A stretch of DNA of 64,000 bases, taken from contig JAZQBS010000153.1 of NCBI GenBank assembly GCA_045545875.1, positions 6,530 to 70,529 on the forward strand, read 5' to 3'. How positions within the stretch are numbered: position 1 is the stretch's first letter; every line of letters starts with the position of its first letter. Shown piece after piece: positions 261-58,530 of the stretch. The notes under the pieces were generated by a model that saw only the letters and a program-made list of their open reading frames with translations, was not told the origin of the DNA and did not search any database. Position numbers and translations under genes: made by a program. This stretch comes from Bacteroidales bacterium. GTDB taxonomy: Bacteria > Bacteroidota > Bacteroidia > Bacteroidales > UBA3663.

Positions 261-423
261 TAAGGGATTCTAAGGGACATTAAGGGATTCTATGAGACAT
301 TAAGGGACGCTTCTCTCGGACGTGACCGAAAGGAAACAATGTTTCTTGGGACCCATTCTCTTGAGGCGGAGGTAACGTCCCCTAATATCCCTTAATATCC
401 CCTAATATCCCTTAATATCCCTT
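261..423. repeat. Inverted pair of phased heptamer arrays around a 70-bp core: 5x TAAGGGA (261,271,281,291,301) and 5x TCCCYTA (378,388,398,408,418), exact 10-bp period
   Basis: Read directly. The arms are reverse complements in the 7-nt core only, and the 3-nt spacers alternate (TTC/CAT; C/T), giving a 20-bp super-period. The innermost pair is GGGACG/CGTCCC. Confidence 0.9.
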
Positions 424-425
424 CA

Positions 426-1577
426 TTGTCCTCCATCTACCTCCACATCCCCTTCTGCGCCTCCCGCTGCATCTATTGCGACTTCTACTCCACCATCCTG
501 CGCAACAAGGCCCCCCAGTACGTCGAGGCCTTGATCCGCGAGATGGACGAGCGGAGGTCCTTCCTCCAAACCCCCGTCCGCACCATCTACTTCGGAGGCG
601 GCACCCCCTCCCAATTAGGCCCCGCCAACATCGCCACCCTCCTCCGCGCCCTCTCCTCCCATTTCGACCTCTCTCATTGCGAAGAAATCACCCTCGAAGC
701 CAACCCCGAGGACTTCATCGACGGCACCTGGCCAATAGCTGGTCCCGCTTCCTCCCCCTATGCAGGGGGATTAGAGGGGGTCCCCATCACCCGCCTCTCC
801 CTCGGCGTCCAGTCCCTCGTCGATAGCGAGCTCCGCCTCCTTCACCGTCGTCACAATGCCGCCCACGTCCGTGAGGCCGTCCGCTTCCTCCGCGATGCCG
901 GCATCACCAACCTCAGCCTCGACCTGATGTACGGCCTCCCCACCCAGACCCTCGCGTCCTGGGAATACAGCATCGACGAAGTCCTGAAGCTCCGACCCCA
1001 GCACATCTCCGCCTACAACCTCAGCGTCGAACCCGGCACCCGCCTCCACAGCCTCGTACAAAAGGGCGAGCTCACCCCTTGCGACGACGAGACCTGCCTC
1101 CAGATGGCAGCTCTCCTCCGCACCAAGCTCAAGGCCGCAGGCTTCGAGCAATACGAAATCTCCAACTACGCCCTCCCCGGTTTCCATTCCCGTCACAACT
1201 CCTCCTATTGGGTTCCCACCCCCTACCTCGGCTTAGGTCCAGGCGCACACAGCTACGACGGCCACAACCGTCGCAGTTGGAATGCTCCCGACGTGGTAGC
1301 ATACTTACGAGGAGACCGTGCCGAAGAATCTGAAACCCTCTCCGACCTCGACCTTTACAACGAACGAGTCATGCTCGGCCTCCGCACCGCCCATGGCATC
1401 GACCTCCACGATCTTGAATCCGCCCTACCCCAATCATGCTCCCTCAACACCCTCCGCCCCACCATCGACTCCCTCCTCCACCGCAATCTTCTCCAGCTCC
1501 GCCACAATCACCTCTCTCTCACCCCCTCCGGCCTCTCTCTCGCCGATGAAGTCATTCGCGAACTTATGTTCGTCTAA
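426..1577 (+). CDS. hemW: Radical SAM family heme chaperone / oxygen-independent coproporphyrinogen-III oxidase-like protein (HemW/HemN family)
   Basis: Motifs HIPFCASRCIYCDF (CxxxCxxC), GGGTPS and LSLGVQS are present. It has a TTG start directly after the repeat array, and the length (383 aa) is typical. Confidence 0.85.
   Translation: MSSIYLHIPFCASRCIYCDFYSTILRNKAPQYVEALIREMDERRSFLQTPVRTIYFGGGTPSQLGPANIATLLRALSSHFDLSHCEEITLEANPEDFIDGTWPIAGPASSPYAGGLEGVPITRLSLGVQSLVDSELRLLHRRHNAAHVREAVRFLRDAGITNLSLDLMYGLPTQTLASWEYSIDEVLKLRPQHISAYNLSVEPGTRLHSLVQKGELTPCDDETCLQMAALLRTKLKAAGFEQYEISNYALPGFHSRHNSSYWVPTPYLGLGPGAHSYDGHNRRSWNAPDVVAYLRGDRAEESETLSDLDLYNERVMLGLRTAHGIDLHDLESALPQSCSLNTLRPTIDSLLHRNLLQLRHNHLSLTPSGLSLADEVIRELMFV
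744..783 (-). repeat. In-frame copy (reverse orientation) of the core of the GACCCCCTC..CCCCCT-GCTT-AGGGGG interspersed element inside hemW
   Basis: CCCGCTTCCTCCCCCTATGCAGGGGGATTAGAGGGGGTCC aligns with the reverse complement of 19763-19805 and 7812-7845 with few mismatches. It encodes ...GPASSPYAGGLEGVP... Confidence 0.75.
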
Positions 1578-1618
1578 CCCTCGCCAACTCATTTTATGGT
1601 CATTAACATCTAAAACTC

Positions 1619-1654
1619 TGCAGAATTCTATGCAGAATTCTATGCAGAATTATA
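1619..1654. repeat. 3 x 12-bp tandem repeat TGCAGAATTCTA (each unit carries GAATTC)
   Basis: Read directly. It lies 40 bp after the hemW stop. Confidence 0.9.
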
Positions 1655-1986
1655 AGATTATCTGTATAGTCGTCATCATATAAAATAATAATCTGTTCAA
1701 TCCTAAGCGCCTCCTCAACTGTTTTTCTCAACGAAACCAAAATTTCCAGTTTATATTTAGCAGGAATAGCTGTTAATAAAATCAATCTGTTTAATCCGCA
1801 GCTCATCTTAAGTCCACCAATGAATCTTTAAGCCTATTTTCACCTTTTCTCTCAAAAAACTCATGTCAATTCGTGATATTTCGTGTTAAATATACCCCTC
1901 GACACGACAGATTCCCGCACTCCCATTCGAGCCTGTCGCATATTCCCTCTCTTGTCGCTACCAAAAACCAAAAATCCCACAAAATA

Positions 1987-55903: not shown

Positions 55904-56716
55904 TCACTTGATGACGCGAATCTTCATGCGCACGTCGGTCTTTGGGCGATTCACAGCATTGCTTTCGAGGGCTGCGATCTTTGAAATGACATCAAGGCCC
56001 TCGACGACCTCACCGTAGCATGTGTATTCGCCATAGATGTGATAGGCTCCACCTATCGTACTGTATGCTTCACGCTCAGCAGGAGTGAAGAAACGTGTGC
56101 CGGGCATAGTGCGGGCAATGCTGTCGATGTCGTGGTTGATGCGACGTGCCAACTGATTGTATTCGGCAATACTTGTGGTCTTAAGCATAGCCAGTGAATC
56201 TTTCACAGCCTGGGTCATTACCTTACGTTGGGCTGCCTTGCGAGCTGTAGCATTGTGCGTCTTTTCCCAATTGTTGAGCGTGGCTTCGCTCATCACGTAA
56301 CCATCGACGATGAAGAACATCGACATATCGGAGTTGACCACACCTTCACGATGGGGAGCACAGAGCGCACCCTTTTTCGGAACGTGATTCTTGCGAATCT
56401 CCGCCGGTATCTCTTCGCTGAGGTCTCCCCAGCCGATACTTTGTCCAGGCAATGCAGTCTTCGAATCAGGAGCACCACCTTGAATCATAAACGTGGGCAT
56501 GACACGCCCGAAGAGCGAGTCGTCGTAGTATCCTGAACGAACCTTACTCAAGAAATTAGCTACCGTACGGGGACAGTCGTCGTAAAGCATCACTCGCATG
56601 TTGCCCATATTGGTGGTGATGAGCACCTCGTGAGTTTGGGCCTTGACAGTTTGACCTGTCACATTGGGCAAAAGAACCAAAGCGAGCAGCGAAAGAAGAA
56701 CTGATAGTTTTTTCAT
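55904..56716 (-). CDS. Secreted cyclophilin-type peptidyl-prolyl isomerase with helical insertion
   Basis: Signal peptide from the ATG at 56716, ...FGRVMPTFMIQGGAPD... and ...YTCYGEVVEGLDVISKI... Confidence 0.9.
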   Translation of the reverse strand: MKKLSVLLSLLALVLLPNVTGQTVKAQTHEVLITTNMGNMRVMLYDDCPRTVANFLSKVRSGYYDDSLFGRVMPTFMIQGGAPDSKTALPGQSIGWGDLSEEIPAEIRKNHVPKKGALCAPHREGVVNSDMSMFFIVDGYVMSEATLNNWEKTHNATARKAAQRKVMTQAVKDSLAMLKTTSIAEYNQLARRINHDIDSIARTMPGTRFFTPAEREAYSTIGGAYHIYGEYTCYGEVVEGLDVISKIAALESNAVNRPKTDVRMKIRVIK

Positions 56717-56814
56717 GAACAAAAATTGAAAGGTAAAAGCCCTTCCCTCCATATAGAGAGAAGGGCGTATTGTTAGAATTATAGACCTTAGAGGTCGAAC
56801 GTCATTTTCGACAA

Positions 56815-58296
56815 TTATTCACCACGGCTATAGTTGGGAGCCTCCTTGGTGATGGTCACATCGTGAGGATGCGACTCAAGAATACCGGCGTTGGTGATTC
56901 GTGTGAACTTCGAGGTTGCATGCAGTGTCGGGATATCCTTGGCGCCACAATAGCCCATACCGGCACGCAGACCGCCCACCATCTGATAGATCACCTCATT
57001 GACATTTCCCTTGTAAGGAACGCGGCTGACAATGCCTTCGGGAACGAGCTTCTTCACGTCAGCCTCACCCGACTGGAAGTAGCGATCCTTCGAACCAGCC
57101 TGCATGGCATCGAGCGAACCCATGCCACGATAGCCCTTGAACTTACGTCCGTTGAAGAGGATGGTCTCGCCAGGAGATTCCTCGACACCAGCCAGCAGTC
57201 CACCGAGCATTACACAGTAACCACCGGCAGCAATAGCCTTGACGATATCGCCAGAGTAACGGATGCCGCCATCGGCAATCAGCGGGATATTGGTGCCACG
57301 GAGTGCCTTGGCCACGTCATAGACGGCTGAAAGCTGAGGAACACCAATACCTGCCACGATACGTGTGGTGCAAATGGAACCTGGGCCAATACCAACCTTC
57401 ACAGAGTCGGCACCTGCATCGGCAAGATACTTGGCAGCCTCGCCTGTTGCAATATTACCTACCACAACATCGATGCAGTCGTAGGTCGCCTTGATCTTTT
57501 CAAGCACTGTAACGACGCCCTTTGAATGACCATGGGCCGTATCTACCACCACAGCATCGACACCTGCATCAACGAGAGCAGCCACACGCTCCATCACGTC
57601 ACCAGTTACACCGACACCTGCTGCTACGCGCAAGCGGCCACGGTCATCCTTGCATGCCAATGGCTTGTCCTTGGCTTTAGTGATATCCTTATAGGTAATC
57701 AGACCGACCAGACGGCCTTCGACATCGACTACAGGGAGTTTCTCAATCTTGTGCTCCTGAAGGATGTCCTCAGCCTGAGCGAGAGTAGTACCAACAGTGG
57801 TCGTAACAAGGTTCTCAGTGGTCATCACCTCGGAAATCTGGCGATTCAGGTCCTTCTGGAAACGCAGGTCACGATTGGTGACAATACCAACGAGGCGACG
57901 ATCGGCTCCCACCACTACGGGAATGCCACCAATATGATATTCAGACATCAGGGAAAGGACATCGCGCACGGTAGCGTTTGGCGTAGTACAAATGGGAGCG
58001 TATATCATGCCGTTCTCGGCACGCTTCACCTGGCTGACCTGATGCGCCTGAGCCTCAATGCTCATGTTCTTATGGATAACGCCGATACCGCCTTCACGAG
58101 CCATGGCAATAGCCATCTTGGCCTCGGTCACCGTATCCATAGCAGCCGAGACAATAGGAACATTTAGCGAAATATTGCGTGAGAACTTGGTGCTCAAATC
58201 CACTAGGCGTGGCAGCACCTCACTGTACTGTGGGACGAGGAGGACATCATCGAAGGTCAATCCGTCCATAACGACCTTGTCGGCAAGAAAACTCAT
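56815..58296 (-). CDS. guaB: IMP dehydrogenase
   Basis: N-terminus ...[14 protein letters not shown]..., tandem CBS region, and catalytic ...[11 protein letters not shown]... Confidence 0.95.
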
Positions 58297-58469
58297 AACT
58301 TAATCCTTTTAAAATTACAATCAGTGAATCGTAACGTTTGAATTTTATTGCCTGCAAAGATAGTTGTATTTTTCGAAATAAACAAATTATTAGTGGGAAA
58401 TTTTCGTTTTCAGGCGAAATTTCCCACTTTATGCGAACGATTGAAATCTGTGATATGAGATTAAGAGGG

Positions 58470-58530
58470 GGTTCGAAGGGTTCGAAAGGTTCAAAGGGTT
58501 CGAAAGGTTCGAGGGGATGAAGGGTTCAAT
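58470..58530. repeat. About 7 x 9-bp tandem array GGTTCGARR (58470, 479, 488, 497, 506, then degenerate), palindromic core TTCGAA
   Basis: Read directly. It is intergenic except that its last degenerate unit contains the stop codon of the 58526-59290 gene. Confidence 0.9.

Follow-up and report, generated by a model that had tools for sequence, protein, structure and literature searches.

What are the short, exactly spaced repeat arrays that occupy gene gaps in the 64-kb stretch of Bacteroidales DNA analysed here (the window), and why do the same units recur inside open reading frames? The first-pass annotation had reported five intergenic arrays, and TRF confirmed all five; its observation that one unit occurs both in gene gaps and in ORFs was likewise borne out. 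Using a period of 6-30 and a score of at least 60, we found 8 arrays in the 64 kb, against a mean of 0.1 (maximum 1) in 30 dinucleotide shuffles, and the enrichment that the annotation had anticipated was thus found across the window. The arrays are real, and the view that they form one family rather than a set of independent curiosities is supported. GGTTCGARR is present at 4 window loci, one unit is common to 4 of the 5 9-bp arrays, and GGTTCRARR occurs 15 times where 4.3 occurrences are expected. We lean slightly towards the answer that a population of miniature dispersed repeats, specific to this lineage, is present and that the arrays are its tandem-repeat component. The genome that hosts it is probably Prevotellaceae-like, within the Bacteroidales, and from a ruminant gut.

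Downstream of hemW, 1619-1654 (plus strand) holds (TGCAGAATTCTA) x2.8, which TRF placed at 1619-1651 (12 bp x2.8, 100% match); it sits in a ~174-bp insertion specific to the window (about 1608-1781) that relatives L148 and L149 do not carry. The GH43-GH9 gap, which is the leader of the GH9 gene, contains (TCTAGAnnn) x8-9 at 53497-53577, with no strand assigned (TRF, 53497-53567, 9 bp x7.9, 0% indels). At 58469-58530 (minus strand), (YYTCGAACC = GGTTCGARR) x6.7 begins at the TGA stop codon of an acyltransferase gene (TRF, 58469-58527, 9 bp x6.7). The annotation had described exact phasing, three to nine repeats of a core and a period near one helical turn. Phasing was exact in several arrays but failed in the left arm at 14001-14044, where a 9-nt mini-hairpin breaks the spacing into 10 and then 19 bp, and the 1619 array comprises no more than 2.8 units. 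Unit periods in the lineage, of which a sample of only ~330 kb was examined, were 7, 9, 10 and 12 bp, so that one helical turn suits the 10-bp arrays only.

The arrays at 261-423 and 14001-14142 are two copies of a single element, in which a conserved ~45-nt core lies between inverted 10-bp arms whose sequence differs by copy. In core element 1, the left arm, (TAAGGGAnnn) x5 (259-307, plus strand), starts 3 nt past the stop codon of an upstream peptidase-C10-like gene; the centre (308-377, plus strand) holds the conserved core AATGTTTCTTGGGACCC...AGGCGGAGGTAACGTCC at 338-380; and the right arm, (TCCCYTAATA) x4.6 (378-423, plus strand), ends 3 nt short of the TTG start of hemW. TRF called both arms as 10-bp repeats with a super-period of 20, inverted with respect to each other. 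In core element 2, the left arm (14001-14044, plus strand) consists of GGAGTTAACG x3 with the mini-hairpin interruption, the conserved core AATGTGTCTTGTGTCCC...AGGCGAAGGTATCGTCC occupies 14044-14087 (plus strand), and the right arm (14082-14142, plus strand) comprises a perfect 16-nt stem partner and then (TAACTCCCAA) x5.3 (TRF, 14090-14142, 10 bp x5.3), 25 nt 5' of the GH3 ATG. The core is common to both elements and to L009 and L016. Rumen and reindeer MAGs supply two further copies of the element, bringing the core family to four, each at a different locus, in three genomes.

The 9-mer had been said to lie in frame in radA, purM and an SSS transporter, and we confirmed all three, the units in purM being degenerate. 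The radA insert (24898-24959, minus strand) combines an M1 hairpin, GCAGCCAAAGACGGCTGC (24898-24915), with (GGTTCGARR) x4 (24919-24959) and encodes SNLSNPSNLSNLSPQPSLAA; its four exact units encode ...SNLSNPSNLSNLS. The RadA loop that receives it is hypervariable among homologues: measured from the SGEES to the DSIQ anchor, its length is 52-56 aa in distant Bacteroidales and reaches from 53 to 124 aa in relatives of 88-99% identity, and the insert is missing in one 94% relative. In purM, three degenerate units (TCAAACYCY) at about 21414-21446 (minus strand) encode LSNPSNSLNS, and the same site holds six TCGAACCYT units in L002 and 48 bp of 10-bp-type units in L003. Units of the 10-bp type thus enter purM too, provided that together they add up to a multiple of three, which suggests that insertion ignores the frame and that selection does the filtering. 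The SSS-transporter insert (36167-36193, plus strand), GGTTCGAAT GGTTTGAGG GGTTCGATA, encodes GSNGLRGSI and has seven units in L003-L005; in HemW, the length of the loop varies between 26 and 91 aa. The ORF inserts total a multiple of three and are sited in loops already variable in length. Those in RadA, PurM and HemW are absent from more distant orthologues and vary among strains, and the in-gene segments are therefore not ancestral.

The arrays adjoin small dispersed hairpin modules, M1 and M2, copies of which are spread over various loci, some of them in frame. M2 lies in frame in hemW (753-790, minus strand; CCCCCTCTAATCCCCCTGCATAGGGGGA, encoding YAGGLEGV) and in two intergenic copies, at 7814-7845 and 19765-19795 (both plus strand). 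Two M1 hairpins (GCAGCC-N6-GGCTGC) with C-rich linkers lie in the PPIase leader (20765-20825, minus strand). The annotation had overlooked both this accompaniment of the arrays by dispersed modules and the core common to two of its five arrays.

The arrays had been predicted to be polymorphic at orthologous loci, and they are: among relatives of 85-99% identity, every comparable array was missing, exchanged for repeats of a different kind or altered in its number of units. At the 3' end of the acyltransferase gene, the window's 7 units compare with ~3 degenerate ones in strain L140 (98% identity), whereas L141-L147 have none, and the TCTAGA array is missing in L147, where the GH43-GH9 gap is 35 bp. 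Core element 2 is wholly missing in L002, with (AATTAAC) x5 in its place, and the site of core element 1 carries 2-5 GC hairpins instead in L148-L150. The PPIase leader, which holds M1 hairpins in the window, has (YYTCGAACC) x4 in L001 and L002 and (CTCTTAACCC) x9.6 in L003-L005. Of the indels of at least 9 bp that separate the window from L001 and L002 (92.6% identity), most involve these repeats; for L001 the figure is 5 of 7, judged by eye from the sequences and not by a computed classification. The arrays appear to be fast-turnover, "junk-like" mini-repeats that close relatives gain and lose in gaps and in frame in essential genes, and do not appear to be conserved protein-binding sites, operators or centromeres.

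The lineage-specific population that we favour would consist of micro-arrays of 7-12-bp units and small hairpin modules. Slipped-strand mispairing, made easier by hairpin arms and by unit cores that are self-complementary, would change the number of units, and units and modules would be copied from locus to locus by some DNA-level route, for which ectopic gene conversion, template switching at hairpins and a trans-acting enzyme are candidates. Purifying selection would then spare copies in short junctions, in leaders or trailers, or in frame in flexible loops. As likely side effects, the arrays would probably be transcribed along with the flanking genes, both core elements would form ~150-nt mRNA hairpins, and in-frame copies would contribute Ser/Asn/Pro/Leu linkers. 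Consistent with dispersal, rumen-type contigs carried GGTTCGARR at over 10 non-orthologous loci, among them rhamnosidase, GH2 and MFS-transporter ORFs, a stop-to-ATG gap and inverted arms around differing cores; the window's unit types recur in these contigs in frame in glycosidases and transporters and in gene gaps. The annotation's proposal of one mechanism, a mobile micro-repeat, is partly supported, by the units at non-orthologous loci, the hairpin modules and the shared core; no target-site duplication was found in the insertions compared, and no mobilising enzyme candidate in the window.

One alternative is that the repeats, above all both core elements, are selected RNA-level cis-elements: intercistronic RNase III or other processing sites, stabilisers or, for the G-poor arrays, unstructured translation leaders. 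The core elements fold much better than shuffles (z -4.6 for core element 1, whose centre folds into a long hairpin, -9.3 for core element 2, and further values of -6.9 and -3.2). All 4 of the 4 copies are co-oriented with co-directional flanking genes, each starting 2-8 nt past a stop codon, and their arms, divergent between copies, remain complementary within each copy. The strong conservation of the core across three genomes, together with this uniform orientation, hints at selection for function in the subfamily. Array-bearing gaps contain no terminator-like site, and none coincides with an array, so the arrays are probably transcribed; where an array immediately precedes a start codon, its sense strand is rich in C and poor in G, and the phylum is one that lacks Shine-Dalgarno sites. 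Similar roles have been proposed for the hairpins of cyanobacterial STRR (PMC2670836). Against this reading, close relatives with the same gene order lack the elements at those junctions, and covariation in the core is almost nil (1 of 15 pairs across 4 sequences) despite its sequence conservation. In addition, the 9-bp arrays fold weakly (-11.5 kcal/mol), no array matched an Rfam family, and hairpin-templated repair at the DNA level could yield complementary arms without selection. We consider a selected RNA role unlikely.

The repeats might instead be true non-autonomous transposable elements, MITE- or REPIN-like, whose enzyme is encoded elsewhere and whose arrays are subterminal binding sites or footprints. 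A core flanked by inverted arms would suit such elements, as would a 71-bp hairpin-plus-units insert at window position 59316 that is present in one near-identical strain and not in another. Within the M2 copy at 19765-19795, L001 and L002 carry nested 115-155-bp insertions. Three soil contigs have a PF05635 ORF bordered by inverted GGTTCGARR arrays that fill a stop-to-ATG gap exactly. The core-sharing copies, however, differ in their arms, the opposite of what transposase-binding ends would show. In no case compared could an insertion be delimited by a clean target-site duplication or by terminal inverted repeats; the only hints were A(A/G)ACC on the flanks of the insert in L140 and, at 1688/1784, a partial duplication. 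No Par, Rep, transposase or reverse-transcriptase gene lies within the window. The core pattern matched only 2 of 185,579 species genomes, and GGTTCGARR x3 matched no viral contig. Transposition by such an enzyme also seems improbable to us.

Alternatively, each array could have arisen by slippage from a chance seed at its own locus, with no copying between loci and with shared units reflecting convergence or amino-acid preference. Unit number is unequal even among near-identical strains, and TRF detected the two-unit super-periods that are typical of slippage. Moreover, GGTTCGANN x3 is found as an ordinary in-frame repeat in very diverse metagenomes, in unrelated organisms with GC of 0.26-0.76, so that part of the recurrence could be convergence. 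In contrast, amino-acid preference is ruled out by the presence of GGTTCGARR in non-coding DNA and, within ORFs, in either orientation. Independent seeds would also have to account for the single unit in most of the window's 9-bp arrays, for the association of arrays with dispersed hairpin modules and for a conserved core at four different loci. Furthermore, within L002, and likewise within L003, the array in purM has the same type of unit as the neighbouring one in the PPIase leader, unlike the window, where the two sites hold different repeats (TCAAACYCY units and M1 hairpins); between genomes, orthologous arrays differ. We consider purely local slippage unlikely as well.

Functional DNA-binding arrays (iterons, operators, centromere-like sites, or clustered methylation or restriction targets bound cooperatively by protein) would account for the exact phasing with 0% indels in several arrays, the 10-bp period of both armed elements, the confinement of all 8 of the window's 8 TCTAGA sites to the single array at 53497-53577, and a modest enrichment of palindromic hexamer cores (5 of 13 unit families against 1.8 expected, P~0.015), which a dimeric binding protein or methylase would fit too, but we consider them very improbable, given that even a strain of 98% identity keeps no array unchanged at the orthologous position, that one site differs in unit sequence and period by lineage, that periods span 7-12 bp, that copies lie within ORFs, that TTCGAA, GAATTC and GTTAAC occur at expected frequency once array sites are set aside, and that partition and replication genes are absent from the window. 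The iterons of plasmid R1 parC, with which the annotation had compared the arrays, are conserved direct repeats beside parMR. Like parC, the core elements have two blocks of about five ~10-bp repeats around a central segment; unlike parC, their arms are inverted, their context is chromosomal and housekeeping, they vary among strains and no par genes lie in the window, and the comparison was not supported.

The miniature-repeat population that we favour would, by analogy, most resemble Rickettsia palindromic elements (RPE), cyanobacterial STRR and the Porphyromonas BrickBuilt MITE. RPE were reportedly described by Ogata and colleagues in 2000 as single units of ~100-150 bp, and STRR are said to have been linked by Elhai and colleagues in 2008 to very small mobile repeats. 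In R. bellii, 53 of 526 RPE copies lie within ORFs (PMC1458961). Like the window repeats, RPE are small, dispersed and palindromic, both intergenic and in frame, housekeeping genes included; their counterparts here, M1, M2 and the 9-bp arrays, occupy gaps as well as in-frame positions within radA, hemW, purM and the SSS transporter. The likeness is one of architecture across phyla, as the window has 18-35-bp hairpins and tandem 7-12-bp units of strain-variable number. STRR are 7-bp tandem units at many intergenic sites, with hairpins possible between co-transcribed genes and with transcript stability or translational coupling as proposed roles (PMC2670836). The window shares such short, dispersed, hairpin-capable units, but they measure 7-12 bp (mostly 9-10), have in-frame ORF copies, form inverted arms around a core and belong to a different phylum.

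The annotation knew of no such class in Bacteroidota, a statement that needs qualifying, although the layout differs: BrickBuilt of Porphyromonas gingivalis, also in the Bacteroidales, combines a minisatellite with inverted-repeat ends in 19 dispersed, strain-variable copies (PMC4596501). There the 23-nt tandem repeats are central, the small inverted repeats terminal and the copies always intergenic (PMC4596501), whereas in the window the inverted arms are themselves built of the tandem repeats and enclose a unique core that is conserved, and ORFs also contain related units. As at VNTR or contingency loci, unit number varies among strains, consistent with slipped-strand mispairing; unlike them, one unit is spread over many unrelated loci, and in-frame units in multiples of three give no gene on/off switching. 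REPINs, as outlined in PMC3337134, are hairpin-forming doublets copied within a genome. Their arms are conserved and their spacer variable, whereas the core elements have a conserved centre and variable arms; no RAYT gene was seen in the window, and REPs are extragenic by definition, whereas the window's modules also lie in frame. The M1 hairpins with their C-rich linkers are, like REPs, short GC-rich intergenic hairpins, as is a cluster of GC-rich hairpins at 39.2-39.7 kb that is REP-like in look.

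The first-pass annotation described five micro-repeat arrays in intergenic gaps, and we recovered all five in the window both by direct reading and with Tandem Repeats Finder (TRF). TRF resolved 10-bp units in inverted orientation at 259-307 and 378-423, 2.8 units of 12 bp at 1619-1651, 5.3 units of 10 bp at 14090-14142, accompanied by a weaker arm to the left (14001-14044), 7.9 units of 9 bp at 53497-53567, and 6.7 units of 9 bp at 58469-58527. Arrays with a period of 6-30 and a score of at least 60 numbered 8 in the window, against a mean of 0.1 in 30 dinucleotide shuffles. 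Similarly, GGTTCRARR occurs 15 times in the window (4.3 expected), all 8 of the TCTAGA sites in the 64 kb lie within the single array at 53497-53567, and a palindromic hexamer is present in 5 of the 13 unit families (1.8 expected). Inverted arms are formed by two of the five arrays; the remainder are solo, with palindromic cores. The geometry originally attributed to the set was accurate in part: an interruption in the left arm at 14001 means that this arm is not exactly phased; the 1619 array, with 2.8 units, falls below the proposed three to nine repeats; and a period close to one helical turn describes only some of the set, as periods of 7, 9, 10 and 12 bp occur across the lineage. Scans for sigma-70 promoters, whose consensus is inapplicable to Bacteroidota, and for intrinsic terminators found that the arrays resemble neither. 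Assembly artefact was ruled out, as the arrays are shorter than the read length and other, independent assemblies contain them too (L001, L002 and L140).

Searching for homologues of RadA, the acyltransferase and HemW, we reached syntenic contigs of ~82-99% identity, and among those compared no array was conserved at its orthologous site. At the acyltransferase 3' end, the 7 units of the window correspond to ~3 degenerate units in L140, a 98% strain, and to none in L141-L147. The GH43-GH9 gap measures 104 bp in the window, including the TCTAGA array (53497-53577), versus 35 bp without the array in L147. In the glycoamylase-GH3 gap, the element at 14001-14142 is replaced by five copies of (AATTAAC) in L002, and where the peptidase-hemW gap of the window holds the element at 259-423, L148-L150 have 2-5 GC-rich hairpins with C-rich linkers. 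Downstream of hemW, the 12-bp array lies within a ~174-bp insertion that is missing from L148 and L149. The PPIase leader (20765-20825), directly 5' of the ATG, carries two GC hairpins in the window, four copies of (YYTCGAACC) in the 92.6%-identical contigs L001 and L002, and 9.6 copies of (CTCTTAACCC) in L003-L005. A systematic alignment of the window with L001 and L002 revealed that length differences of at least 9 bp mostly involve repeat modules; for L001, by our reading of the listed indel sequences, this was true of 5 of 7 such indels. These data bear out the expectation that the arrays would be polymorphic between relatives: they are rapidly gained, lost and replaced at fixed permissive sites, and their unit number varies between close strains. 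Two further insertions are specific to the window relative to L001 and L002. One, in the GH3-OMP gap (16440-16720), holds an inverted repeat (16467-16596) whose 19-nt arms enclose a 92-nt spacer, along with an 11-bp array (16681-16711); the other, of 138 bp (19834-19971), contains a hairpin with 30-nt arms (19886-19951).

The same kind of unit was reported in frame within three genes, and we located each of these at the sequence level. On the minus strand, radA (23946-25433) contains four exact GGTTCGARR-type units at 24919-24959, which encode SNLSNPSNLSNLS; purM contains three degenerate units at ~21414-21446; and the SSS transporter contains GGTTCGAAT GGTTTGAGG GGTTCGATA at 36167-36193. The RadA stretch between the conserved motifs SGEES and DSIQ spans 52-56 residues in more distant Bacteroidales, and 53-124 residues in relatives that share 88-99% identity with the window protein. 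The inserts in this loop are Ser/Pro/Asn/Leu/Ala/Gln repeats of varied unit length, and one 94% relative has none. At the DNA level, the window insert consists of the four-unit array plus the hairpin GCAGCCGTCTTTGGCTGC; L001 has one extra unit (4 versus 5), and L002 carries three 51-bp repeats of a C-rich linker plus the same hairpin. A second hypervariable loop, in HemW, ranges from 26 to 91 residues and is composed of the radA-insert hairpin read as PSQPSMAA and a second hairpin module, M2, read as YAGGLEGV. At the purM site, the window has TCAAAC-type units, L002 six TCGAACCYT units and L003 48 bp of 10-bp-type units, so that units whose length is not a multiple of three also enter ORFs if the total length fits. 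In the SSS transporter, L003-L005 carry seven units, compared with three in the window. In-frame residence is restricted to variable loops. With RadA loops short in distant species and inserts variable among relatives, we conclude from these sequence comparisons that the in-gene segments are not ancestral in Bacteroidales orthologues. A phmmer search of 1.84 billion representative proteins with the 32-aa RadA insert as query gave 0 matches, an uninformative result because the insert is of low complexity.

Gene callers extend hemW (L148 4001-5245; 414 aa versus 383) and radA (L002 10001-11695; 540-564 aa versus ~495) upstream through stop-free C-rich repeats, and annotated protein lengths are therefore inflated; such start mis-calls warrant caution in annotation. 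Other coding features of the window were also observed. The 3' end of the ribosomal protein S16 gene (37909-37980) is a CAGCAG/GCAGCC-rich tandem repeat, with periods of 6-21 bp, that yields a low-complexity C-terminal extension. The hemW gene (426-1577) has an extreme bias toward C-ending codons (C3 0.68, G3 0.11, sense GC skew -0.37), whereas C3 is 0.25-0.45 in its neighbour genes and intermediate (0.55) in the 966-aa gene at 4681-7581.

Units and hairpins also recur at unrelated sites. A metagenome scan with three copies of GGTTCGANN was too generic, returning in-frame GST, PVE and RFE 9-bp repeats from organisms of GC 0.26-0.76; the only informative subtype was GGTTCGARR, which is concentrated in contigs with a rumen-type composition. 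In these it lies in frame, in both coding orientations, in a rhamnosidase, two GH2 enzymes and an MFS sugar transporter; in L080 an array exactly fills a stop-to-ATG gap, and in L072, L081 and L041 arrays form inverted arms whose enclosed cores are mutually different. The recurrent unit families found by TRF in ~330 kb of the lineage were GGTTCGARR/GGTTTGAGR, CTCTTAACCC, AATTAAC-type and CTATAGnnn. Of the two small dispersed hairpin modules, M2 (~30 bp, CCCCCTCnAATCCCCCTGCwTAGGGGGA) occurs at 753-790, in frame in hemW as YAGGLEGV, at 7814-7845 and at 19765-19795, with further copies in L041, L072 and L148-L150; in L001 and L002 the copy at 19765 carries nested 115-155-bp insertions with a 25-bp flanking duplication. 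M1, a GC-rich hairpin (GCrGCC-N6-GGCyGC) with C-rich linkers, is found at 20765-20825 and 24898-24915 in the window and at 10624-10743 in L002, whose radA holds three copies at 51-bp spacing; it is widely scattered in leaders and in frame in relatives' RadA and HemW, encoding QPSLAA or QPSMAA. In L140, whose acyltransferase is 98% identical, a 71-bp insert (3595-3665) made up of a hairpin and GGTTCGAAA/GGTTAAGAA units with A(A/G)ACC flanks occupies the position of a 26-bp gap in the window (59316). Identical units and hairpins are thus dispersed to non-orthologous loci. Within L002 and within L003, the neighbouring arrays of purM and the PPIase leader are built from one unit type, and orthologous arrays differ from genome to genome; this pattern hints at homogenisation between loci, although the two sites of the window are unlike each other. 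A separate ~450-bp cluster at 39256-39709, between convergent DUF4890 and DPP-IV genes, alternates the hairpin modules AAGCACTCTGACGGCCGACAGAGTGCTT and ATACCCTTTCTTGGCCAAAATTGGTTATGC and is REP/BIME-like, with TRF periods of 42, 84, 126 and 210 bp.

The arrays at 261-423 and 14001-14142 share a feature overlooked in the first-pass annotation, a conserved centre of AATGTnTCTTGnGnCCC, 9-10 nt and AGGCGrAGGTAnCGTCC, by which we recognize them as one element. Their arm units differ (TAAGGGAnnn versus GGAGTTAACG) yet are complementary within each copy. When we scanned the core pattern against 185,579 genomes, one per species, we found two further true copies, both with TAAGGGA-type arms, one in a rumen MAG of an uncultured Prevotellaceae member (L009) and one in a Bacteroidales MAG from reindeer (L016); the other 12 matches were attributable to chance. 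The pattern had 0 matches in JGI metagenomes, and an nhmmer profile built from the four cores found no additional copies in the collected related loci. The four copies occupy four different loci, and each starts 2-8 nt past the stop codon of the upstream gene and is co-oriented with its flanking genes. All fold into ~150-nt hairpins far beyond shuffled controls (z -3.2 to -9.3). A role at the RNA level is possible for the conserved-core subfamily: the element may act between cistrons, as a hairpin or an RNase III site, or else as an unstructured G-poor leader in a phylum that lacks Shine-Dalgarno sites. RNAalifold of the four cores, however, showed conserved sequence with essentially no covariation; Rfam 15, searched with the whole window at the gathering threshold, matched only a tRNA, and in E-value scans the two core elements had nothing beyond chance matches below threshold. 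Roles of a similar kind have been proposed for the STRR hairpins of cyanobacteria (PMC2670836), but the elements are dispensable at the corresponding junctions in close relatives. The arms look as though the stem-proximal 10 bp had been duplicated in tandem and mirrored to either side, a pattern that, speculatively, fits hairpin-templated repair. The core elements offer a compact system for studying the origin of iterated-arm hairpins and the possible processing of polycistronic mRNAs.

We propose that unit number would change by slipped-strand mispairing, consistent with two-unit super-periods, self-complementary cores (the palindromic hexamers of 5/13 families) and hairpin arms; that units and modules would spread between loci, with ectopic conversion, hairpin-templated switching and a trans-acting enzyme as candidate routes; and that copies would survive selection only at gene junctions, in leaders and trailers, and in flexible loops. 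Close strains differ in unit number at the same locus (7 vs ~3, 4 vs 5, 3 vs 7), as is typical of VNTRs arising by slipped-strand mispairing. Independent slippage at each locus does not, however, explain units shared across both coding orientations and non-coding DNA, or the linked hairpin modules, and we infer a copying mechanism that acts between loci. For true transposition, no clear target duplication or enzyme was found: the sole duplication hints are a partial AATCTGTTyAATCC duplication at 1688/1784 and the flanks of the L140 insert, other junctions being too diverged to read, and neither an autonomous partner element nor a gene for a transposase, RAYT, reverse transcriptase or partition protein lies within the window.

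The suggestion that the arrays are phased iterons for cooperative protein binding, as in a parC-type centromere, is contradicted by their non-conservation, varied periods, inverted arms and gene context. The iterons of such centromeres are direct, in one orientation, and flank a par promoter, whereas the arms of the core elements are inverted complements; parM/parR or other partition genes adjoin centromeres, whereas the core elements neighbour peptidase C10/hemW and glycoamylase/GH3, and no partition or replication domain was found within the window; and centromeres are conserved among related replicons, whereas the core elements are absent or replaced in L002 and L148-L150. Viral-contig scans gave no sign of a phage origin: GGTTCGARR x3 was not found, TAAGGGA x3 retrieved 8 unrelated phage arrays, all without the core, and the TCTAGA-type (TCTAGANNN) x4 retrieved 74 contigs in IMG/VR (L159-L232), mostly giant-virus MAGs seemingly unrelated to the window.

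In behaviour, the repeats come nearest to the palindromic elements of Rickettsia, which enter ORFs in frame (PMC1458961). Like those elements, M1, M2 and the arrays occur both in ORFs (radA, hemW, purM, SSS transporter) and in gaps; the Rickettsia unit is described as ~100-150 bp, unlike the 18-35-bp hairpins and 9-12-bp units found here. Cyanobacterial STRR arrays are also similar, being short units in tandem at many dispersed intergenic loci, as are GGTTCGARR, AATTAAC-type, CTATAG-type and CTCTTAACCC across the lineage loci; STRRs, however, are heptamers of heterocystous cyanobacteria, whereas our units are mostly 9-10 bp and the named related loci are Prevotellaceae/Bacteroidales MAGs. MITEs have terminal inverted repeats; here, two of the five arrays form inverted arms and the others are solo. 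REP/REPIN-RAYT systems conserve the arms around a variable spacer, the reverse of the core elements, where conservation lies in the centre and the arms vary between copies, and the window lacks a RAYT gene. Among Bacteroidales, the P. gingivalis minisatellite-MITE BrickBuilt (PMC4596501) is the nearest precedent, and it qualifies the earlier assertion that no such element class is described in Bacteroidota; for Prevotella, our literature searches turned up no account of such repeats. The repeats share neither unit size, layout (iterated variable arms around a conserved centre) nor host with the Rickettsia, STRR or BrickBuilt families, and by the defining features of these families they belong to none of them.

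In three soil metagenome contigs of GC ~0.65, we found PF05635 ORFs flanked by inverted GGTTCGARR-type 9-bp arrays (L064 1-620, L076 2495-2830 and L137 2490-3070); in L076, the arrays and the PF05635 ORF together exactly fill a stop-to-ATG gap. PF05635 is the 23S rRNA intervening-sequence protein family, a four-helix bundle. That an active, lineage-restricted, hairpin-targeting mechanism copies short tandem units and mini-hairpins into the chromosome, making them a new miniature mobile class resident in frame in essential genes, we regard as improbable. On that reading, the window repeats may be related to the soil elements, and if so, this long-unexplained family would have a part in propagating them.

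If our reading is correct, a common ruminant-gut Bacteroidales group carries a dense, fast-evolving population of miniature repeats that would reshape gene junctions, supply variable Ser/Asn/Pro/Leu linkers to RadA, PurM, HemW and glycosidases, and account for most length differences of at least 9 bp between the close relatives compared. It would also extend 'selfish DNA inside protein-coding genes' beyond Rickettsia and provide high-resolution strain markers for rumen metagenomics.

Finally, GTCGAC is strongly depleted across the window (8 observed, 31 expected) and CTGCAG moderately so (25 versus 43 expected), which suggests restriction-site avoidance unrelated to the arrays.
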